Positions 6,532 through 30,749 of a DNA stretch of 64,000 nt are shown in pieces. The stretch is taken from the NCBI GenBank assembly GCA_965214785.1, contig OZ243975.1, forward strand, positions 2,160,593 to 2,224,592. The letters are read 5' to 3'. The notes under the pieces were generated by a model, which was given only the letters and a program-made list of their open reading frames with translations, did no database searches and was not told the origin of the DNA. The position numbers and the translations under genes were made by a program. Position 1 is the stretch's first letter. Each line of letters begins with the position of its first letter. Source of the DNA: Arenicellales bacterium (GTDB taxonomy: Bacteria > Pseudomonadota > Gammaproteobacteria > Arenicellales > JAJDZL01).

Positions 6532-9468
6532 TCAGTCCTCTTCGTCCATCCAATCTGTAATAGGTGGGCAGCTGCAGACTACGTTTCGGTCGCCATATAC
6601 ATTGTCGATACGGCTGACAGGCGGCCAGTATTTGTCTTGCCAAATCCATGGCAGCGGAAAAAACGCTTCCTGTCGGGTATACGGCAAATCCCACTGATCA
6701 TCAATCAGCAAATCAAATGTATGCGGGGCGTTGGTAATCGGATTGTTCTCACGGTCGGATTCGCCGGATTCAATTTTTGCAATCTCCTTGCGAATTTGGA
6801 TCATCGCGTCGCAATACCGGTCAATTTCTCGCATAGCCTCACTTTCAGTAGGTTCTATCATCATCGTGTCGGCAACCGGAAACGACACCGTCGGGGCGTG
6901 AAAGCCAAAGTCAATCAGTCGCTTTGCCACATCTTCTACGGTGACACCAGTAGCAACTCGGATTTGACGCATGTCGATAATGCACTCATGGGCTACACGG
7001 CCGTTTTGACCTTTGTACAGAATCGGGTAATACTTCTCCAGCCTGCTGGCCATATAGTTCGCGTTCAAGATTGCGATTTCGGTCGCATAGCGCAAGCCTT
7101 CAGCGCCCATCAGCGAAATATATGCCCAAGAAATCGGCAAAATGCCTGCTGACCCCCACGGAGCTGCCGACACGCTGCCGACAGTGGGTTGCTTGCCGGC
7201 GTATGGGTTGACGCCTTCCACCACACAGTGATCAGGTAAATATGGTGCCAGGTGGGTGCGCACACCGATTGGACCCATCCCAGGCCCGCCACCGCCATGC
7301 GGTATGCAAAACGTCTTGTGCAGATTGATGTGTGCGACATCTGCGCCTATTTCAGCAGGTTTGCACAGGCCCACCATCGCGTTCATGTTTGCTCCGTCAA
7401 GATACACCTGCCCGCCGTACTGATGAACCAGGTCACAGATATCAAAAATCCGTTCTTCAAATACACCGTGTGTTGACGGATAAGTAATCATCAGTGCCGC
7501 TACGTCATCGCTGTGTTTTTTTAACTTAACCTCCAAATCGTCAACATCTACGTTGCCTTGGTCATCACAGCTGACTACCACAACCTTCATGCCGGCCAGC
7601 GCTGCGCTGGCTGGGTTTGTGCCGTGGGCCGAGCGCGGAATCAGGCATACATCGCGATTTCCCTGTCCCTGGGATGTGAGGTATTGTTTGATGCAAAGAA
7701 GTCCGGCGTATTCACCCTGTGAACCGGCATTGGGTTGGAATGAAATCGCGTCAAATCCAGTAATCTCACAAAGCATCTGCTCAAGCTCTTCAACCAACTG
7801 GTGATACCCTTGCGTCTGGTCAAGCGGCGCGAAGGGGTGAATGGCACTGAATTTGTGAAATGTTACCGGCGTCATTTCTGTGGTTGAATTCAGTTTCATT
7901 GTGCACGACCCAAGAGGGATCATCGAGCGGTTCAGTGCGATGTCTTTTTGGCCCAGCTGGCGGATATAACGAAGCATCAGCGTTTCTGAGTGATACAGGC
8001 TGAAAGTCGGATGCGTCATGTAGGCGCTGGTACGCTGCAAGTTTTCAGGGATGACCGTGTCCAGACACCGATCCAGTTCGTCAATCGTGAACTTCTTGTT
8101 GGCATGGGTGTCAAAAATCGCCCACAGCCGCTCAAGATGAACGCGTTTGGTTGTTTCATCGAGAGAAATTCCAAGATGGTCGGCATCGACAACTCGCAGG
8201 TTGATTCTTGATTCCCGGGCGCGGGCGGCAATCCTGCGAGCCTGACCATCCGCGTTGATCGTCAGCGTGTCGAAATAAACATCGTGCAATACCTTGTATC
8301 CCAGACGTCTTAAACCTTCTGCAGTAATCAGCGTAAATCGGTGAACCCTCGACGCAATATCTTTTAAGCCGTCGGGACCGTGATAAACCGCGTAGAACGC
8401 AGCGACAATCGCAAGCAATACTTGCGCAGTGCAGATATTGCTGGTAGCCTTGTCTCGACGGATATGCTGCTCTCTTGTCTGCAGCGCCATACGCAAGGCA
8501 GGCCTTCCTTTCGAATCAACCGATACGCCTATCAAACGTCCAGGCAAGGTGCGTCTGTACTCATGGCGAGTGGCTAAAAAAGCAGCGTGCGGTCCGCCAT
8601 AGGCCATCGGCACGCCAAAGCGTTGTGAGTTTCCGATAACGATATCTGCACCAAACTCACCAGGGGGCTTTAGAAGGCAAAGCGCCAGTGGGTCGGTTGC
8701 GACCGTTACAATCGCCTTTTTACTGTGCGCGTTTTCTACCAGATGGGAGATGTCGACGACCTGTCCGCTCGACCCAGGATACTGGATCAAAATGCCAAAA
8801 CAATCTTCATGCTCCTCAAGCAAAGATGCCATGTTACCGATGGATATTTCAAACCCCAATGAGTTCGCGCGGGTTTGGACAACAGCGATAGTTTGCGGGT
8901 GGCAGTCGTTGGAAACCAGAAACTTGTTTGACTTGCTTTTAGATACGCGTTTGGACATCGCCATCGCTTCTGCCGCTGCGGTGGCTTCATCCAGCAAAGA
9001 GGCGTTGGCCAGTTCCATGCCGGTTAAGTCTGTCAACATTTCCTGGAAAATCACAAGTGCCTCGAGCCGTCCCTGACTGACTTCAGCCTGATACGGTGTG
9101 TACGCAGTGTACCAACCCGGGTCCTCGAAAATATTTCTGCGTATAACGCCTGGCAGGACTGTTGCGTGATAACCCATTCCAATCATGGACGTGAACACGC
9201 TGTTTCTTTCGCGCATTCGGCGTATATAGCTGATGGTTTCGTTTTCACCTGCCGGATAGGGTAAATCGAGCGGCTTGTCAGTAACAAGTCGCTTGGGAAC
9301 AGTCTGGTCAATCAGCTCGTTCAGTGACGAAAGCCCCAGTTCTTTGAGCATCATTTCGACTTGTTCGGGCCCAGGTCCAATGTGTCGCCGAACGAAGTCG
9401 TTGTGGTTTTCGTGTGCGGTTAAAAGCGTGTTCTGACTGGCGTTGGGAATTGTTGAATTGAAAGTCAT
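6532..9468 (-). CDS. gcvP: Glycine dehydrogenase (decarboxylating), single-chain P protein
   Basis: 978 aa. N-terminus ..DFVRRHIGP..; PLP-lysine region NLHKTFCIPHGGGGPG. It lies downstream of gcvT-gcvH. Confidence 0.97.
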   Translation of the reverse strand: MTFNSTIPNASQNTLLTAHENHNDFVRRHIGPGPEQVEMMLKELGLSSLNELIDQTVPKRLVTDKPLDLPYPAGENETISYIRRMRERNSVFTSMIGMGYHATVLPGVIRRNIFEDPGWYTAYTPYQAEVSQGRLEALVIFQEMLTDLTGMELANASLLDEATAAAEAMAMSKRVSKSKSNKFLVSNDCHPQTIAVVQTRANSLGFEISIGNMASLLEEHEDCFGILIQYPGSSGQVVDISHLVENAHSKKAIVTVATDPLALCLLKPPGEFGADIVIGNSQRFGVPMAYGGPHAAFLATRHEYRRTLPGRLIGVSVDSKGRPALRMALQTREQHIRRDKATSNICTAQVLLAIVAAFYAVYHGPDGLKDIASRVHRFTLITAEGLRRLGYKVLHDVYFDTLTINADGQARRIAARARESRINLRVVDADHLGISLDETTKRVHLERLWAIFDTHANKKFTIDELDRCLDTVIPENLQRTSAYMTHPTFSLYHSETLMLRYIRQLGQKDIALNRSMIPLGSCTMKLNSTTEMTPVTFHKFSAIHPFAPLDQTQGYHQLVEELEQMLCEITGFDAISFQPNAGSQGEYAGLLCIKQYLTSQGQGNRDVCLIPRSAHGTNPASAALAGMKVVVVSCDDQGNVDVDDLEVKLKKHSDDVAALMITYPSTHGVFEERIFDICDLVHQYGGQVYLDGANMNAMVGLCKPAEIGADVAHINLHKTFCIPHGGGGPGMGPIGVRTHLAPYLPDHCVVEGVNPYAGKQPTVGSVSAAPWGSAGILPISWAYISLMGAEGLRYATEIAILNANYMASRLEKYYPILYKGQNGRVAHECIIDMRQIRVATGVTVEDVAKRLIDFGFHAPTVSFPVADTMMIEPTESEAMREIDRYCDAMIQIRKEIAKIESGESDRENNPITNAPHTFDLLIDDQWDLPYTRQEAFFPLPWIWQDKYWPPVSRIDNVYGDRNVVCSCPPITDWMDEED

Positions 9469-22264: not shown

Positions 22265-22282
22265 GCGCATTTGCGTCAGCTT
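22258..22282. terminator. Palindromic hairpin spanning the convergent stop codons of the SPOR gene and phaC
   Basis: AAGCTGAgCGCAttTGCGTCAGCTT is a near-perfect inverted repeat. There is a T-rich run only on the phaC side (complement of gaaaccaaag). Possible bidirectional terminator. Confidence 0.4.
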
Positions 22283-23334
22283 CGCTCACCGAGCCACTTA
22301 GAAACCTTAATCGGAATGTCTGCCCCAGCTTTGCCGCTGACATAAATTCCGATGTGCCCGGTGTCATACTCGATTTCCTGATAGTCTTTTGTACCCGCCA
22401 GGTACTTCAGTGCTTTGGACGCAGCGGTGGGCACCAGATGATCATGTTTTGCCATGATGTTTAAGATGGGGTGCTTAATTTTTTTCAGATCCACTGCCCG
22501 CCCGTCGATTTCAAGTTCTCCTGTCACCAGTTGGTTTTCCCGAAAGAATTTACGAATAAACGTACGAAACATCTCTCCGGCCTGGTCGGGACTGTCGAAA
22601 ATCCATTTCTCCATGCGCATGAAATTTTCAACTTTATCTTTCTGATCAATAATTTTTACCAAATCAAGGTATTTCTCGATGCCGAGACGAAACGGCTTGA
22701 GTGAAAGAAAGATACTGTTCAGTAAAGTGCCTGGAACATTCCCCATGGTGTCCACGAGGCCATCAACATCAATTTTGCCAAACCAGTGTGTCAGCAGATT
22801 GTCCGGGGAGTGAAAGTCCACCGGTGTGACCATGGTTACCAGATTGTTGACTTTTTCAGGATAAAGCGAGGTGTAACAAAGGCTCATCGTTCCGCCCTGG
22901 CAGATACCGAGCAGATTCATCTTGGCGGTACCGGAATTTTCCAGCGTTTTGTCCACGCAAGTGTTGATGCGCTCGGTATAGTGGTGCAGATCGACAAAAC
23001 GATCGGCTGCGCTCGGGTATCCCCAGTCGATGAGGTAAACGTCGAGGCCCTGATTCAACAGTCCTCTGACTAAGGAGCGGCGCTTGTGTAAATCTACGAT
23101 ATAGGGTCGGTTTACCAGTGCATAAACAATCAGCACCGGGATATTTGTTTCGGGCTTTTCATCAAAAGGTTCGTAGCGGTATAAAACCATCTCTCGATCA
23201 CTATAAACCGGTCGCTTCGGTGTGGTGCCGACTTCGATTTTGTCGAGTTTCTGCAGTACTTTGACGCCTTCTGTCAGACGGGACTGGAACTCGATCGCCT
23301 CAGTAGCGAGTTGGTCAGCGTTTTTGATACTCAT
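22276..23334 (-). CDS. phaC: Class III poly(3-hydroxyalkanoate) synthase, catalytic subunit PhaC
   Basis: 352 aa, the class III size. Lipase-box-like GICQGG, and it is colinear with Allochromatium-type PhaC (..VLIVYALVNRPYIVDL..YLIDWGYP..). ATGA overlap with phaE upstream. Confidence 0.9.
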   Translation of the reverse strand: MSIKNADQLATEAIEFQSRLTEGVKVLQKLDKIEVGTTPKRPVYSDREMVLYRYEPFDEKPETNIPVLIVYALVNRPYIVDLHKRRSLVRGLLNQGLDVYLIDWGYPSAADRFVDLHHYTERINTCVDKTLENSGTAKMNLLGICQGGTMSLCYTSLYPEKVNNLVTMVTPVDFHSPDNLLTHWFGKIDVDGLVDTMGNVPGTLLNSIFLSLKPFRLGIEKYLDLVKIIDQKDKVENFMRMEKWIFDSPDQAGEMFRTFIRKFFRENQLVTGELEIDGRAVDLKKIKHPILNIMAKHDHLVPTAASKALKYLAGTKDYQEIEYDTGHIGIYVSGKAGADIPIKVSKWLGERS

Positions 23335-24194
23335 GATTTTTTTGAGGTGCGTCGTCGGCTCGACCCCTGGGCAGCCGGACGCTTGTTCGATGTGCGTTTT
23401 GCTGTCTTGGGGCGAGTGGTGTGAATTTTCTTTTCCAATTCTGCAACTGTTTGCTGCAGTTGTCGAATTTCGGTTTCTTTTTGCTGATTATCCCGGTGTA
23501 TCTGTTCCATTTCCTGGCGCGATGGCTGCCCTCGCAAACGGCAGAATTTGTCGTCGATAATTTGCATTTGCCGGGTCAGTCGCACGTGGCAGTCAATCAG
23601 TTTGCCATAGGTTTGCGCGTATTGGTCGGTAAACGCGAGTTTTTGAAACTCGTCTTCACACAGATCGATCCATTTGCGACACAGTGAATCAAAATCTGAT
23701 TCGGCATCCATTTCGCTTATCAGGGTGATGAATTTTTCGCTGGTATCTCTGGAGAAAATCTGGAAAACGCTGATGTAGTCTTGTAAAGCGGATGCGTAAT
23801 TGAGCTGACATTTTGAAAGCTCGGCAAAATCTTCCTGATATTCCCGGCTGATACCCAGTGCAGGCAGCTGAGCGGATGCGCCTTGAGCAAAGTTCGGCGA
23901 AGTGGCAGTGAGGTTTTTCATGGACTCAAGCCACGGGTTTGTCATCGGCGGCATCTGAGCGGATGCGACACCTGGCATGAATGACTGAAGAGAAAACATC
24001 CGGATCATCTCTTCGATCTTCAAGGCGGTGGCGGTGTCTGCGCCTTGAGCATGCATGGCGTCGAACACGTTTCGAAATGCTTCAGATAAATCTGTAAGCT
24101 GTGAGTAGATATTCGGTGACGGTGACGGCGCAGACATTTTGCTCCACGGCGAAAGCCAGTCATTTTGATGAAATGTATCCCAGGGATTGAACAT
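23331..24194 (-). CDS. phaE: Class III PHA synthase subunit PhaE
   Basis: 287 aa. Blocks colinear with A. vinosum PhaE (..LGISREYQEDFAELSKCQLNYASALQDY.., ..WIDLCEDEF..YAQTYGKLIDCHVRL..), followed by a coiled-coil and a basic tail. Confidence 0.85.
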   Translation of the reverse strand: MFNPWDTFHQNDWLSPWSKMSAPSPSPNIYSQLTDLSEAFRNVFDAMHAQGADTATALKIEEMIRMFSLQSFMPGVASAQMPPMTNPWLESMKNLTATSPNFAQGASAQLPALGISREYQEDFAELSKCQLNYASALQDYISVFQIFSRDTSEKFITLISEMDAESDFDSLCRKWIDLCEDEFQKLAFTDQYAQTYGKLIDCHVRLTRQMQIIDDKFCRLRGQPSRQEMEQIHRDNQQKETEIRQLQQTVAELEKKIHTTRPKTAKRTSNKRPAAQGSSRRRTSKKS

Positions 24195-24470
24195 GTGATT
24201 GTGAGTTAATTTGCCAGTAAAGTCGAGTGGTGAATTTTATTCGATTCGGAAAATTATTATTCCGATTGGCATATTCACTGACATATCGGTCAGGGTGTTT
24301 TCCGCTAATTTTTTGATGGTATTCTTCTGTGTGTTCGCTTGAGAATTGGCCAAAACAACTCAATTCCGTCGATAGGCGCTTCGTCTATTGCATACCCGAG
24401 CGCGTTAGCGTGTTTTGAAAAATCCGTGCAAAGTTTCCTAATGAGTGTTATCAATCACCTGGCGGAGAAG
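24160..24470 (-). pseudogene. Possible frameshifted remnant of an AraC/XylS-family regulator (C-terminal HTH region only)
   Basis: Minus-strand frames give ..LIRKLCTDFSKHANALGYAI.. and, in another frame, ..TELSCFGQFSSEHTEEYHQKISGKHPDRY... Together they mimic the two AraC HTH motifs (..L.R.F.K..G.S...Y.. and ..GF.S.S.F.R.FKK..G..P..Y..). There is no intact ORF. Confidence 0.3.
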
Positions 24471-24884
24471 CTTCGTTTTGGAAAATTGCCATCAACTCAA
24501 TGAAATGATAACATCGTCGCGATGCGACTTGTCAGGGGTTCTATTATTCGCTTTCATATGATCTGCTCAATTGATCATGTCAAAGCTCAAATAGCAACAT
24601 ATTTCGCTGGTTTAGGCCATGTATACAAACATTAAATACTGGGCGTTGGAATACAAAATTGTATATAACGAGGCAACATACACAACAAAGCCATAGATTC
24701 CTTGGGCAGATAAAATCGCATGGCTGTATATTTCTAACGTTAGCTTCCAATTATTCACTGACGATGCACATGCCGATATTCTTACGGTTCAGAGAAATAA
24801 TTGTGATAAGAAGCAATCCATTATGACTGGCACCATAAAGGAGAGTTTGAATCTTTTCTCTCCGATTCAGGAATAGTTGAACCA

Positions 24885-25790
24885 ATGGAAGTAATTAACC
24901 CAATCCAGCTTACTGCATCTACTCTTGCCAAATTGAATGCAGATGTTTCTAATGAACTAAATGGAGATTGCATTTTTATTTGGTGTGGAATTCTGTCACC
25001 GCTTGACGACGAACTGCGCGCAGTAATCGAAGGGCTTGTTGCAAGCCCGGATCATAAGCAAAACTTAATTGTTTTACTAGAGACAAAAGGCGGGTACATT
25101 GAAATCGTAGAACGGATGGTGCGTATTATGCGGAATCACTACGAAGAGGTGTATTTTATTATAGCAGGACACGCTTATTCTGCGGGCACCGTGCTCGTTT
25201 TATCTGGCGACAGGATTTATATGGATTATTACTCTGTTCTAGGTCCAATTGATCCACAGGTCCAAGATGAAGAGGGAGCATCTTTGTTGCCAGGTGTTGG
25301 ATATTTGGAAAAGTTCAAAGAGATCAGGAAGAAAATAAATAAATCAACTTCAAATTCCCCAAATGCTAGGAGAGCCGAATTAGCATATTTGATTAAAAGG
25401 TTTGACCCCGCAAAGTTATTTCATATTGAGCAAGCAATTCAGCATGGTCGTTCTTTGATTACTGAATGGTTGCCAAAGTACAAATTCAAAAGTTGGAAAA
25501 AGACAACAACTCGGGGAGTAAAGGTCGATGAACAAATGCGAAAGAAGCGTGCAGAAGATATTGCAAGTTTACTCGCAAAGGCAGACAGGTGGCATTCCCA
25601 TGGAAGGGGCATATCAATGAGCGAACTTCAGGGTGAAGAAATAAAACTAGAAATCGACGACTTTGGCGCCAACAGCAATCTAAATTCTGCGGTAAGGAAT
25701 TATCACGGGTTAGCAATTGACTATGCGAAGAAAGTCGGTATCAGAGGTTTCATTCACACTAAAATTCATGGCATGAGGAGTATTCGATGA
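24885..25790 (+). CDS. SDH-family Clp/SppA-fold serine proteinase (PF01972-like)
   Basis: 301 aa. ..LIVLLETKGGYIEIVERMVRIM..VYFIIAGHAYSAGTVLVLSGDRIYMDYYSVLGPIDPQ.. is the ClpP/SppA crotonase-like core, with the nucleophile Ser in YSAGT. The gene is visibly more AT-rich than its neighbours. Confidence 0.7.
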   Translation: MEVINPIQLTASTLAKLNADVSNELNGDCIFIWCGILSPLDDELRAVIEGLVASPDHKQNLIVLLETKGGYIEIVERMVRIMRNHYEEVYFIIAGHAYSAGTVLVLSGDRIYMDYYSVLGPIDPQVQDEEGASLLPGVGYLEKFKEIRKKINKSTSNSPNARRAELAYLIKRFDPAKLFHIEQAIQHGRSLITEWLPKYKFKSWKKTTTRGVKVDEQMRKKRAEDIASLLAKADRWHSHGRGISMSELQGEEIKLEIDDFGANSNLNSAVRNYHGLAIDYAKKVGIRGFIHTKIHGMRSIR

Positions 25791-26002
25791 AAAATACAAT
25801 CAAATCTAACAACCTTACCAAGGCAGATACTGACAAGTTTGTCAAACTCATTGACGAATTGTCGAAACAGTCTGATGATTCAGGATTTCTTGACTTGGAT
25901 TACCTTGATCAAATTCCCGAACATGATGATATTGACAAGCCAATTCCGTTTCCATTTGGAGGGCACGGAGAATTTGGGAAATGGCGTTCACAATCAAAAT
26001 AA
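25787..26002 (+). CDS. Small acidic protein, translationally coupled to the protease gene
   Basis: 71 aa. ATGA start/stop overlap with the upstream gene. It is D/E-rich (..DDSGFLDLDYLDQIPEHDDIDKP..) with a C-terminal FPFGGHGEFGKW. I recognise no family. Confidence 0.55.
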   Translation: MKNTIKSNNLTKADTDKFVKLIDELSKQSDDSGFLDLDYLDQIPEHDDIDKPIPFPFGGHGEFGKWRSQSK

Positions 26003-26473
26003 CATTGCTAAATTCCCAACCATTTTTTGAATGACCCGCTGGACATGCGGGCGCGTAGCGCTAGACCAGCAGAAATAAACCAAACTGTGCTTGACTTGTC
26101 CTCTTTTTTGGATCTCAAGCGCCTTGAACAATTCTTGGATTGCATCTTTAGCCAGCCACGAAACTGGATGCGGCGCTGCTTTATTAACAACAACCCCACA
26201 ACTGCCGTTGGCCTGCTCGACACGGGACGATTTCTGGATGTTGACTTAACGGCAAATATCTGAATCGCTTACAACCACAGGTTGCCAGGCTCCTTTATTC
26301 GTGTTCATTCGGGCCGTTCGAATGGCAATTTATTTCGCTGATATAGGTTCAATATTTGAAGCGAAATTCAAACACAGTTTGAAGTGTGCAGTGCAAAACA
26401 AAACCCAATTGATATAAACAGCGAAGTGTACAATATCACGTCCGTTTAACCCGCTTTAGGAGCTTGAAACATC

Positions 26474-27205
26474 ATGACTGTCAAAGACCGTGTAGCCGTA
26501 GTAACAGGTGGTACGCGAGGAATTGGCGAAGCAATTTCTGTTGCATTGAACGACAGCGGCTATCTAGTCGCTGCAAATTATGGTGGCAACCATGATCGCG
26601 CCCGACAATTCAACGAACGAACCGGCATTGCTATTTACCCATTCGATGTGAGCAACTTTGATGAATGCAAAGCAGGAATTGCTGCGATTTCGAACGATTT
26701 GGGTCCTATCGACATTGTTGTGAACAATGCAGGAATTACCCGGGATAAAACCTTACATTCAATGGACTTCGAGCAATGGAACGAGGTTTTGCAAACCAAT
26801 TTGTCATCGTGCTTCAATATGTGCCGATGCGTGATTGAAGGCATGCGCGAACGCGGGTTTGGTCGGATTGTGAATATCGGTTCGATAAACGGACAAGCCG
26901 GTCAATACGGCCAGGTCAATTATTCAGCTTCAAAATCAGGAATTCACGGGTTTACCAAGGCATTGGCGAAAGAAGGCGCCAGCAAGGGAATTACAGTGAA
27001 CGCGATTGCCCCAGGTTATGTGGATACAGACATGGTGCGAGCCGTACCTGAACGGGTGTTGGAAAAGATCATCGCTACAATTCCAGTCGGTCGACTCGGC
27101 CGCGCGCAAGACATTGCAAGAGGCGTGCTTTTTCTGGTGTCTGACGAAGCGTCTTTTATTACCGGTTCGACAGTCGACATCAATGGCGGCCAACATATGT
27201 ATTGA
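26474..27205 (+). CDS. phaB: Acetoacetyl-CoA reductase (SDR)
   Basis: 243 aa. TGGTRGIG, NNAGITRD, YSASKSG, and C-terminal ..INGGQHMY typical of PhaB. GGAG lies upstream of the ATG. Confidence 0.9.
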   Translation: MTVKDRVAVVTGGTRGIGEAISVALNDSGYLVAANYGGNHDRARQFNERTGIAIYPFDVSNFDECKAGIAAISNDLGPIDIVVNNAGITRDKTLHSMDFEQWNEVLQTNLSSCFNMCRCVIEGMRERGFGRIVNIGSINGQAGQYGQVNYSASKSGIHGFTKALAKEGASKGITVNAIAPGYVDTDMVRAVPERVLEKIIATIPVGRLGRAQDIARGVLFLVSDEASFITGSTVDINGGQHMY

Positions 27206-27213
27206 TGCAGGCA

Positions 27214-27693
27214 ATGACTGAACCGAGAATCATAAAAAAATACTCGAACAGACGGCTTTACGATACGCTTGACAGTCGCTACGTCAATCTGTCGGAAGTT
27301 CGAGAGTTGGTATTGGCTGACATTGATTTCAATGTTGTTGATGTTTCAACAGGGAACGACATTACCCGGCAGATATTGCTGCAGGTCATAGCGGAGCAGG
27401 AAATGGGCGGACAGCCGATGTTCACCAAGGACTTGCTGGTGCAGATGATTCGGTTTTATGGCGGGGCATTTCAAAGTGTTTTTACCGACTACCTGACGAA
27501 AACAGCGAACATGCTCAATGACCAGCACAAGACCTACCAGGACCAGTGGAACGAAATGTTCAATGCAGCTGGAATGCCACAAATGGGCGATATTGCTCAG
27601 CAAAATATGAAGGTGTGGACAGACATGCAGCAACAAATGCTAAGAATGTACGGCTTGCAGCCACCAAAGGAGCAGCCGCCAGAGGATAGCTGA
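27214..27693 (+). CDS. phaR: PHA synthesis repressor PhaR
   Basis: MTEPRIIKKYSNRRLYDT..S.YV.L.. is the canonical PhaR N-terminus. An alternative start at 27202 overlaps the phaB stop. Confidence 0.85.
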   Translation: MTEPRIIKKYSNRRLYDTLDSRYVNLSEVRELVLADIDFNVVDVSTGNDITRQILLQVIAEQEMGGQPMFTKDLLVQMIRFYGGAFQSVFTDYLTKTANMLNDQHKTYQDQWNEMFNAAGMPQMGDIAQQNMKVWTDMQQQMLRMYGLQPPKEQPPEDS

Positions 27694-28675: not shown

Positions 28676-29536
28676 ATGAGTCCATTAAGAAAAAAATTAT
28701 TGAATGACATGACCGTTCGAGGCATGTCGGAGAACACCAAGAAACTGTATGACCGATCGGTATCCGGTCTAGTGAGGTATCACCGCCGAAGTCCCGACAC
28801 CATCAGTAAACAGGAAGTCCAAGACTACCTGCTGTATCTGATTGAAGAACGCAAGTTGAGGTGGACAAGCGTCAATGTGTATGTGCAGGGTATCCGGTTT
28901 TTCTACCGCATCACCTTGGGTCGTCCAGAACCTTACTTCTACGTGCCAACAGCGAAACAGGGATCAAAGTTGCCGGTGCTGCTCAATCGGGATCAGATCG
29001 CGAAGCTGTTCAACGCAGCGGCCAATCCCAAACATCGAGCAATCCTGATTACCGCCTATGCTGCAGGTCTGAGAGTTAGCGAGCTGACTAATCTTCGCGT
29101 CAAAGATATCGACTCGCAGCGCATGACAATTCGCATCTGTCAAGGCAAAGGGAAAAAGGATCGCTACGTGCCGCTGTCACCGCGGCTGCTTGAACAGCTG
29201 CGCATTTACTGGCGGCAAATGAAAGTGAAGCCGACCGAGTGGCTGTTTCCCGGTCAATGTGCCGACGGCCGATTGTCGATCGCCGGTATCGCCAGGATTT
29301 ACAGCAGCATCAAAGCCAAGGCCGGCATCACCACCGAAGGAGGGATCCATACGCTTCGCCATTGCTATGCGACAACACTACTTGAATCCGGTGTCGCACT
29401 GTACAGCATCCAGCGTAATCTTGGACATACCTCGATCCGCTCCACCATGCACTATCTGAGGTTGGCCAAATCGGCGGACAACGAAGCGGTCTCGCCGCTC
29501 GATGTGCCGCCAGGCAATTCGTCGCACCGCAACTGA
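28676..29536 (+). CDS. Tyrosine recombinase (phage integrase family) associated with the IS91-family element
   Basis: 286 aa with an N-terminal SAM-like domain. Catalytic-domain residues: ..AGLRVSEL.., ..KGKKDRYVPL.., ..HTLRHCYATTLLESG.., ..LGHTSIRSTMHYL... Confidence 0.9.
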   Translation: MSPLRKKLLNDMTVRGMSENTKKLYDRSVSGLVRYHRRSPDTISKQEVQDYLLYLIEERKLRWTSVNVYVQGIRFFYRITLGRPEPYFYVPTAKQGSKLPVLLNRDQIAKLFNAAANPKHRAILITAYAAGLRVSELTNLRVKDIDSQRMTIRICQGKGKKDRYVPLSPRLLEQLRIYWRQMKVKPTEWLFPGQCADGRLSIAGIARIYSSIKAKAGITTEGGIHTLRHCYATTLLESGVALYSIQRNLGHTSIRSTMHYLRLAKSADNEAVSPLDVPPGNSSHRN

Positions 29537-30749
29537 TCCGGTGCACCCCAATTGTCAGCCACAGCCGGTCAAACGACCGGCTGTGGAGATTGCCGATATT
29601 GTACGGGTTCGCCTCGCACAATGTCGTAAATTAAAGTGGTTTACGCCACTGCGACAGAAAGTCTCTCGAGCGTTGCTTGATTGTAGAACTGCAGCGCTCG
29701 GCGGCTTTGCCGCGCAGTGCGATCACTGTGGCGCGACCGTTTGCCGCTACAAATCGTGTCGCAACCGTCATTGCCCAAAATGCTTGTCCTTGAAACAAAC
29801 CCAATGGGTAGACAAACAAAACTCGCATCTGCTCGATACCCGATATTGGCATCTGGTATTCACGCTGCCGCACGCGCTCAATCCCATTGCCTTGCAGTGC
29901 CCGAGACAGATTTACTCCATCTTGTTTAAAGCCGCAGGCCAGACTCTGCTCGAATTCGGTCGCGATCCCAAATGGCTTGGCGGACAAATTGGCTTTACCC
30001 TGGTGCTCCACACCTGGGGTGCGAATTTATCGTACCACATTCATGTTCACGCCATCGTCACCGGCGGAGCACTGAGCCATGATCGAAATCAATGGCTGTG
30101 TGCCAAGCACGGCTTCCTTTTTCCGGTGCGGGCTTTGTCCAAGGTTTTTCGAGGTAAATACCTCGACTTGCTCAAAAAAGCCTATCGGAAAGATCAATTG
30201 AGATTGTCAGCCGATACCGTCGAGTTTGACCGGCTGATATCTAAATTGTATGACCACAACTGGGTGGTCTATGCGAAACGGCCATTCAATGGTCCCCGAC
30301 AGGTTGTTGCCTATCTGGGTCGCTACACGCACAAAATTGCAATCTCCAATCACCGTCTGGTCAGTTTTGATGGCCAATCGGTACGCTTTCGCTGGCGAGA
30401 TTACGCCGATGGCAATCGGCAAAAAGTCATGCAGCTTAACGCAGATGAGTTTCTGCGTCGGTTCTTCTTACATGTGCTGCCGCACAGGTTTACACGAATC
30501 CGTCACTATGGTTTGCTTGGCAATCGAAATCGAAAAGAAAATATCGCAGCTTGCCGAGCCGTGCTCAATCAAGATCAGCCGCCTGAGCCCGAGTCTGAAA
30601 CCACCGCACAAATGATGCTGCGACTCACCGGCGTTGATATCACCAAGTGCCCTCATTGTAAGCAAGGCAACTTGGTGACCATGTCCGAGTTTGAACCGTC
30701 GAATCAAGATATCGCAATGGCGTCGACAAGGGTGAGAGCTCCTCCATGA
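29502..30749 (+). CDS. IS91-family (HUH, Y2) rolling-circle transposase
   Basis: Zn-finger N-terminus (CRTAALGG..CDHCG..CRNRHCPKC), HUH motif HTWGANLSYHIHVHAIV, and Y2 motif YLGRYTHKIAISN. The start is uncertain: ATG 29502 overlaps the integrase gene, and the in-frame GTG at 29583 is the alternative. Confidence 0.9.
   Translation: MCRQAIRRTATDPVHPNCQPQPVKRPAVEIADIVRVRLAQCRKLKWFTPLRQKVSRALLDCRTAALGGFAAQCDHCGATVCRYKSCRNRHCPKCLSLKQTQWVDKQNSHLLDTRYWHLVFTLPHALNPIALQCPRQIYSILFKAAGQTLLEFGRDPKWLGGQIGFTLVLHTWGANLSYHIHVHAIVTGGALSHDRNQWLCAKHGFLFPVRALSKVFRGKYLDLLKKAYRKDQLRLSADTVEFDRLISKLYDHNWVVYAKRPFNGPRQVVAYLGRYTHKIAISNHRLVSFDGQSVRFRWRDYADGNRQKVMQLNADEFLRRFFLHVLPHRFTRIRHYGLLGNRNRKENIAACRAVLNQDQPPEPESETTAQMMLRLTGVDITKCPHCKQGNLVTMSEFEPSNQDIAMASTRVRAPP

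Follow-up and report, generated by a model that had tools for sequence, protein, structure and literature searches.

What does AT-rich DNA with a protease gene do in the middle of a locus for polyhydroxyalkanoate (PHA) synthesis? The question is raised by a stretch of 64,000 nucleotides from an Arenicellales bacterium (contig OZ243975.1; the whole stretch is called the window below), in which the divergently oriented genes phaE and phaB lie 2279 bp apart. The gap holds two coupled genes, the first encoding a serine protease of 301 amino acids (aa) with a ClpP/SppA fold and the second a protein of 71 aa. The best explanation of their sequences is a cytoplasmic protease of the SDH family together with a small co-translated partner (about 65 aa). 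The pair is typical of a widespread, unannotated and mobile protease-partner module, which probably has a conflict-related function. The reading that we favour, with a probability of about 0.45, is that of a partner-regulated latent protease which would act in defence or addiction.

The first-pass annotation of this DNA had proposed an intact open reading frame (ORF) of 301 codons with a ClpP/SppA core. The ORF is intact and carries the motifs quoted at that stage, and a Foldseek search with an AlphaFold2 (AF2) model (predicted local distance difference test, pLDDT, 88; alignment of 30 homologs) matched ClpP, SppA and 1510-N (PDB 6m4b and 3bpp), on which the N-terminal half superposes. A sequence-profile search matched the protease to no solved structure. 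The proposed placement in the SDH family stands in part. PF01972 matches above its gathering score (E=4.6e-12, 46 bits vs a cut-off of 31.3), and over 281-306 columns the whole chain aligns structurally with BFVD models of giant-virus 'serine dehydrogenase proteinase' (template modelling scores 0.52-0.55). Nevertheless, the PF01972 alignment is limited to aa 48-137, and NF047768 (E=5e-15, 55.6 bits) does not reach its equivalog cut-off of 250 bits. Furthermore, the protease is matched by phrog_11747, a phage family of unknown function (E=5e-44), and by PF25145 (NfeD/1510-N) with E=5e-6 and 26.7 bits, which is under the Pfam cut-off of 40.

Ser99, located in the motif A-Y-S-A-G-T, is the predicted nucleophile. 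It is invariant in 62 of 62 diverse family members, and hhalign places it opposite the catalytic Ser that E. coli ClpP has in the motif GQAASMG. A further conserved element is the loop W-H-S-H-G-R-G of the C-terminal domain, in which S238, H239, G240, R241 and G242 are conserved in at least 95% of the 62 members. We infer a functional role for this loop, which is flexible and of low confidence in the AF2 model (pLDDT <50 at 238-241). Homologs of the protease are numerous, with 4025 matches in a collection clustered at 90% identity, and with 5046, 1234 and 291 clusters of 50% identity at E≤1e-3, E≤1e-10 and E≤1e-30, respectively; the clustered homologs are nearly all 280-300 aa long. To our knowledge, PF01972-like proteases of the ClpP fold are common and have no assigned cellular role.

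Some of the weaker profile matches point to phage heads. The head-maturation protease model NF045542 gave E=2.8e-6 and 27.4 bits vs a cut-off of 120, and phrog_1684 and phrog_53 matched weakly as well. Together with a partner that is small and helical like a scaffold protein, these matches could indicate a decayed head-maturation protease with the remnant of its scaffold, now devoid of function. We regard such an origin as very improbable, as the match to the SDH family is far stronger, the full-length fold is that of SDH proteinases, and capsid, portal or terminase genes are absent next to the pair in more than 60 loci (244 nearest neighbours). Moreover, the ratio of nonsynonymous to synonymous substitution rates (dN/dS) of the protease is 0.17 against an 83%-identical relative, which means strong purifying selection, and the pair is kept across phyla.

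That both ORFs form one unit joined by an ATGA overlap had been noted from the sequence alone and is correct; the second start is moreover preceded by its own GAGGAG element. By this arrangement the two genes are translationally coupled and the partner is co-translated. As the partner is too short for database-scale statistics, its family was defined by synteny. A total of 80 genome loci with protease homologs were examined, from Gamma- and Alphaproteobacteria, Bacteroidota/Rhodothermales, Thermodesulfobacteriota, Spirochaetes, Planctomycetota, Acidobacteriota, Actinomycetes, Nitrospirae and Myxococcota, and eight with a disrupted protease gene were set aside. A same-strand ORF of 56-89 aa follows the protease directly at its 3′ side in 70 of the 72 assessable loci. 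The recurrence of a small ORF, fixed beforehand as the test of the pairing, is thus evident. About two thirds of these downstream ORFs overlap the protease stop codon by 4 or 1 nt. Searches by sequence returned six close homologs with the single partner and 11 matches with a profile of 54 members, all of them unnamed, and no Pfam or NCBIfam model covers any partner examined.

The partners from different loci can be aligned, and with a dN/dS of 0.57 against the 83%-identical relative the ORF of the window is under purifying selection; its conservation, which had been in question, is established. In the alignment of 54 partners a variable, predicted-helical N-terminal part of 40-50 residues is followed by a conserved motif, located at residues 40-57 from the N-terminus, and by a Trp residue 8-11 residues further on (consensus Φ-x-Φ-P-[YF]-[GS]…W). 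The motif differs between clades: PFPYG prevails in the clade nearest to the window, [LM]PY[ST]S in the middle one and Y-x-L-x-P-P-[YF]-S in the most distant one. RefSeq partners read FTLAYGPD in E. coli, YDLAPSFGG in Rhizobium gallicum and YDLSPPFS in Methylosinus. The motif has also been joined to the protease in natural fusions. One of them (P0152) carries a tail with RLRLPYSS in the same chain, another one (P0259) a tail with two GADYxIEPALG repeats.

Two details of the earlier description of the partner need correction. It had been called strongly acidic, and the net charge of the window protein is indeed negative but moderate (−4), while in the family charges between −7 and +9 occur (median 0); acidity as the defining property of the partner is not supported. 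Its C-terminal end had been misread: the protein ends with ...FPFGGHGEFGKWRSQSK, not at W.

Several other features of the proteins were observed along the way. C-terminal extensions of a different kind occur in further homologs (P0238, P0261 and L171, including a copy on a Leptospira plasmid), where the tail is a zinc ribbon of the type CxxC...CxxC. In the PFPYG clade the partner contains a second short element, L-D-[FY]-[LI]-D-x-[LI]-P, about 12 residues ahead of the main motif (DLDYLDQIP in the window, aa 36-43, positions 25892-25915). It resembles the C-terminal peptide of FtsZ (DYLDIPAFL in E. coli), a similarity so short that it may well be due to chance. Interpretation of the partner as precursor of a ribosomally synthesised and post-translationally modified peptide was set aside, because no recurring modifying enzyme or transporter is found among the neighbours.

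How did the pair reach the pha locus? The AT-rich character of the insert, which the first-pass annotation had judged by eye, was confirmed by windowed composition. GC content is 0.409 vs 0.495±0.020 in non-overlapping windows of equal size (z=−4.2), the minimum of the 64 kb, and GC content at third codon positions (GC3) is 0.37 for the protease and 0.35 for the partner vs 0.47-0.62 for 18 other genes of the window. Both measures set the insert apart from its surroundings, and a horizontally acquired two-gene cassette is the best explanation of the segment. The closest relative of the pair (83% identity), in a metagenome-assembled genome (MAG) of the Arenicellales, lies at a different site, flanked by an acyl-CoA dehydrogenase gene plus a fragment of an IS1595-type insertion sequence (IS) and by a leucine-catabolism cluster. 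DNA homology between the two begins at position 24885, exactly at the ATG of the protease gene, and ends at 26033, 31 bp past the stop codon of the partner.

The pair is cargo of an IS1-family element in a Limibaculum MAG (CATOTJ02), in which a unit of 2778 bp is present four times at 100% identity with perfect terminal inverted repeats of 22 bp (L014, L015, L016 and L017). It is composed of a 106-aa ORF on the minus strand, a basic ORF of 73 aa, the protease, the partner and an IS1-family DDE transposase. As a separate observation, two of the four copies contain an additional insertion of about 840 bp after position 7625. An IS1-type transposase gene is located directly downstream of the pair in nine of 61 loci; the immediate flanks (two genes per side) otherwise consist of unrelated housekeeping genes. 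Copies from Bacteroidota, Thermodesulfobacteriota and Proteobacteria share 55-60% identity, and about 10% of the copies are frameshifted or truncated. The two genes are passed on together, by inheritance as well as by transfer between phyla.

No universal third gene was detected among the loci examined. Nevertheless, a small basic ORF precedes the protease in about 30% of them (approximately 19 of 63) and often overlaps its start (consensus MPKGPxGxKRPADVIGNAVxVAxIATGE...GGKARAxxLSxExRxEIAxKAAxxRW). It has no match in Pfam or NCBIfam, and neither the window nor the E. coli copies contain it. It might have a regulatory function or be a third component that is optional. The closest homologs (55-83% identity) stem mostly from MAGs of Arenicellales, Poriferihabitaceae, Rhodothermales, Thermodesulfobacteriota and Paracoccaceae whose isolates are named in a similar way. 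The pattern hints that the cassette was exchanged recently within one type of community, possibly a host-associated one, and flags horizontal transfer among genomes of the symbiont type.

Coupled expression, co-inheritance and fusions would be expected equally well if the protease had a dedicated substrate or pro-peptide as partner and served the physiology of the cell: trimming at the motif would release a small regulatory or signalling protein, and mobility would be incidental. As a variant of the same explanation, the protease could be self-compartmentalising, with a partner that acts as its adaptor or assists its assembly. Proteases of the same fold provide precedents, namely NfeD with stomatin and the self-processing C-terminus of SppA, and the chromosomal neighbours of the pair are mostly housekeeping genes. 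Difficult to reconcile with such a role are the patchy distribution across phyla with 55-60% identity between distant groups, the foreign composition, the presence as IS cargo and in the lysogeny slot of prophages (see below), the proportion of pseudogenes of about 10%, and the lack of a conserved metabolic or regulatory neighbour. Both variants taken together, we consider this explanation unlikely, while giving it more weight than any of the other alternatives.

A conflict-related function is suggested by some of the genomic contexts of the pair. Of 5426 complete E. coli genomes, 17-20 carry a protease with 36% identity (WP_021518647.1) and a partner of 56 aa. All three E. coli contexts inspected have the pair immediately downstream of a cI-type repressor gene and in the same orientation. 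Two of these are lambda-like prophages (L082 and L086), in which the pair lies upstream of N and thus in the cI-N (rexAB) slot; in the third, from strain 2015C-3121 (L085), the annotation of the examined stretch lists no N, and the pair lies between a small membrane-protein gene on its 5′ side and hicAB, encoded on the other strand, on its 3′ side. Two different prophage backgrounds are represented, and one of these prophages has integrated into an IncI2 mcr plasmid. The region downstream of cI is a mosaic hotspot which is co-transcribed with the repressor in lysogens and holds the abortive-infection genes rexAB and bstA (PMC8585504).

In an Arenicellales MAG (OZ243980.1, L057) a 146-aa ORF, a ThsB-like protein with a Toll/interleukin-1 receptor (TIR) domain (171 aa), the protease (293 aa) and the partner (70 aa) overlap serially. 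The TIR gene, whose product matches PDB entries 9b7d and 6lhy with E=1e-19, overlaps the protease start by 4 nt. Because of this overlapping series the TIR gene, the protease and the partner probably form one operon. The same genome carries a second, different copy of the pair (L027). On plasmid pRgalIE4872c of Rhizobium gallicum (L083) the pair comes directly after same-strand genes for a multiubiquitin protein, a ThiF-family E1 enzyme and a DUF6527 protein. These make up a ubiquitin-like conjugation cluster, a type that has been connected with phage defence. Other plasmid copies have Fic or RelB genes nearby. Comparison of the 244 nearest neighbours with PADLOC yielded single strong matches to Drt1a, HmaA/DrmD-type helicases, mad3, PDC-M50A/B and PDC-S01. 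For the suggested link to mobile and defence contexts, IS1-family cargo, the cI-N slot, TIR coupling and plasmids are genuine instances, but the pattern is patchy and most flanks are housekeeping genes.

Phage genomes themselves also contain the family. Two isolated phages carry members, a Mu-like Shewanella phage (in its accessory region) and Gordonia phage BeeGee, and in one contig of IMG/VR the pair is located among structural genes. These copies lie outside lysogeny modules and, together with the match to phrog_11747 and the IS-element cargo, they would be in line with another service to the carrying element: the protease might counter host defences or assist in host takeover, or it might control the life cycle of the element by cutting a repressor or a host factor, and the partner would then confer specificity. 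The E. coli pair, oriented with cI in a region expressed in lysogeny, does not fit well to such a role. Just three related loci of this subfamily are contained in the 2.9 million contigs of IMG/VR, most copies are chromosomal with no phage nearby, and coupling to a ThsB-like TIR protein points to immunity. We therefore hold a role of this kind to be improbable.

We return to the favoured reading, the partner-regulated latent protease of a conflict module. The motif-bearing tail of the partner would be a dedicated ligand of the protease: bound in the substrate groove, as a pseudo-substrate or as a plug open to cleavage, it would hold the enzyme in a latent state. If the partner were lost or titrated, because a phage infects or the element disappears, the protease would become able to cleave proteins of the host or of the phage. 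The carrying element might profit from this through abortive infection, exclusion or addiction, and the cassette of the window would represent the minimal two-gene form. This specific pseudo-substrate mechanism is less probable than the reading as a whole. As a tentative extension, which we rate clearly short of even odds, the pair could represent an unrecognised, widespread and self-contained immunity or addiction system, in which the protease is latent through a co-translated pseudo-substrate tail, freed on infection, and spread by IS elements, plasmids and prophages.

A number of observations weigh against the latent-protease reading. A defence-type neighbour is present in only about 6-10 of 61 loci, a modest absolute count, and most chromosomal copies lie among housekeeping genes and not in defence islands. 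Neither protein matches PADLOC-DB v2 (E≤1), and full-text literature searches on the protein family (by name and by Pfam or NCBIfam entry), on defence by ClpP-like proteins and on the immunity region of lambdoid phages returned no description of the pair. The gene order with the large gene first and the small gene second, as well as the variable charge of the partner, do not fit the classic labile acidic antitoxin. The general base of the protease is uncertain, because K143 reaches a conservation of 90% or more only in the close clade and drops below 85% among the wider 62 members, and H239 is replaced in fusion P0152, which has WFSCGRN instead of WHSHGRG. Finally, AF2 with an alignment of protease homologs left the motif of this fusion disordered (pLDDT <50), a result which is uninformative on docking because a monomer was modelled and the tail lacked alignment depth.

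The remaining part of the question concerns the pha locus. In ten distant metagenomic class III loci (PhaC 52-57% identical) phaA, encoding a thiolase, is followed by phaB and phaR and diverges from phaEC. The cassette occupies the slot between phaE and phaB that holds phaA in these distant loci of the Allochromatium type, and neither a thiolase gene nor a remnant of one is present anywhere in the 64-kb window. The finding thus accounts for an anomaly of the locus, the missing phaA between phaE and phaB. It fits a cassette that replaced phaA or occupies its slot. The displacement suggested by the first-pass annotation agrees with this architecture, but the insertion is unproven as the cause of the phaA loss because no close relative with an empty site was found: there is no record of the exact protein, a metagenome scan with PhaE gave nothing, and a scan with PhaC returned relatives of at most 57% identity, which are informative on locus architecture and not on the insertion junction.

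An imperfect direct repeat brackets the pair (Table 1). Its core of 30 nt matches at 24 of 30 positions, and a further 24 nt match across an indel of 20 nt. The identity is about 75-80%, and none of 100 shuffles yielded a second match. The left copy is located 268 bp upstream and the right copy 257 bp downstream of the part that is common to the closest relative. The repeats may be insertion junctions (att-like), a target duplication or duplicated promoter or operator sequence of the pha genes. Other border features proposed earlier fared less well. The supposed AraC-type helix-turn-helix remnant (24160-24470) and the minus-strand debris (25994-26245, 84 codons) exist as open frames, but Pfam scans of both translations were empty at E≤1, and borders made of gene debris were dropped as unsupported. 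The GGAGAG/CTCTCC hairpin (24840-24863) is present, but with −9.4 kcal/mol (z=−0.85) it folds no better than shuffled sequence, and a promoter and terminator scan of the hairpin region gave promoter counts near the shuffled expectation. At a distance of 2 kb from the cassette, directly behind phaR and the rubredoxin gene that follows it, an ORF of 286 aa that is tyrosine-recombinase-like overlaps a 415-aa ORF with Cys-rich and HxH motifs (28676-30749; motifs read by eye). The latter resembles, by eye only, an IS91-type transposase, and this region would be a second mobile element.

Table 1. Positions of the cassette, its flanking genes and selected loci of related pairs. Window positions are given without a prefix; locus handles precede positions in other genomes.
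Feature	Position	Strand	Evidence
AT-rich foreign segment between divergent phaE/phaB starts	24195-26473	.	GC, empty of thiolase
SDH-type ClpP/SppA-fold serine protease, 301 aa	24885-25790	+	PF01972, NF047768, phrog_11747, AF2/fold matches
Ser99 codon (A-Y-S-A-G-T), predicted nucleophile	25179-25181	+	conservation and ClpP alignment
W-H-S-H-G-R-G loop, aa 236-242, signature of C-terminal domain	25590-25610	+	conservation
Shine-Dalgarno sequence GAGGAG of partner, within 3′ end of protease gene	25775-25780	+	read from sequence, 6 nt before ATG 25787
Partner, 71 aa, ATGA overlap with protease stop	25787-26002	+	synteny and motif homologs
Partner C-terminal motif PFPFG...W, aa 54-66	25946-25984	+	family alignment
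phaC	22276-23334	minus	divergent from phaB side
phaE, class III PHA synthase subunit, left flank	23331-24194	minus	PF09712 E=2.7e-27
phaB-like short-chain reductase, right flank	26474-27205	+	PF13561, PF00106
phaR, followed by rubredoxin gene	27202-27693	+	PF07879, PF05233
Left copy of imperfect direct repeat bracketing the pair	24540-24616	+	repeat search vs shuffles
Right copy of bracketing direct repeat	26291-26347	+	repeat search vs shuffles
Upstream basic ORF, example	L014 5792-6013
Upstream basic ORF, example	L004 5754-5981
Upstream basic ORF, example	L075 1496-1723
Upstream basic ORF, example	L076 5697-5954
Limibaculum unit	L014 5247-8024		terminal inverted repeats
Pair in lambda-like E. 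coli prophage	L082 6149-7990
Pair in lambda-like E. coli prophage	L086 4233-6074
Pair in E. coli 2015C-3121	L085 3850-6074
ORF, ThsB-like TIR, protease and partner, Arenicellales MAG	L057 5059-7091		serial overlaps
Conjugation cluster and pair, plasmid pRgalIE4872c	L083 2063-6088
Protease with zinc-ribbon tail	L171 4971-6185

What was a vague 'hypothetical protease' can now be described as a mobile two-component module with an obligate, unannotated partner. If the tentative extension to a self-contained immunity or addiction system is true, it would provide the first cellular role for the function-unknown PF01972-like proteases. How does the module compare with known systems? With the SDH family (PF01972/NF047768) it shares the N-terminal ClpP-like core and the Ser in an A-x-S-A-G-T motif, whereas the C-terminal domain has its own signature (WLPKYKFKxW, WHSHGRGIS). 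We know of no description of an SDH family that includes an obligate small partner. The NfeD/1510-N (STOPP) proteins likewise combine a ClpP-fold serine protease with an adjacent partner gene, and in the pair PH1510/PH1511 the 1510-N protease acts on the C-terminal region of the operon-encoded stomatin. In contrast, the protease of the window has neither membrane segments nor an OB domain, its partner is not an SPFH/stomatin protein, and K143, the candidate counterpart of Lys138 of 1510-N, is kept only in the close clade. SppA (S49) has the fold in common, and the fusions P0152 and P0259 place the partner motif at the C-terminus of the protease; B. subtilis SppA (PDB 4KWB, among the fold matches), with its own C-terminus bound in the active sites, is a precedent for a peptide that occupies the groove. 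Unlike SppA, the protease has no signal anchor or tandem-domain architecture.

Type II toxin-antitoxin systems are similar as compact, coupled and mobile two-gene units on IS elements, plasmids and prophages. This likeness is one of architecture alone, as no known toxin, antitoxin or effector domain was detected in the partner with Pfam and NCBIfam. Lit/Gol of prophage e14 and CalpL-CalpT are conceptual precedents for a latent protease with a small partner. The concept of a protease linked to a small partner is also found in protease-effector modules such as protease-Pepco (PMC12642450). From the protease-based defence modules the pair differs by its ClpP/crotonase-like protease fold and the lack of a sensor domain. 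Thus, small mobile two-gene modules built on a protease are already known as a kind, while this pair is undescribed in the sources searched (PADLOC, Pfam, NCBIfam and literature gave no match), in agreement with the initial view that it does not belong to a characterised system. To lambda RexAB and BstA of Salmonella phage BTP1 the pair has no relationship in sequence or fold, but in lambdoid prophages of E. coli it takes the same slot in the same orientation (cro ←, cI →, pair →, N). If the tentative extension holds, it would be a new occupant of the classic rexAB slot of lambda, and because the module sits in the cI-N slot of E. coli, the hypothesis is directly testable in the best-developed phage-host system.

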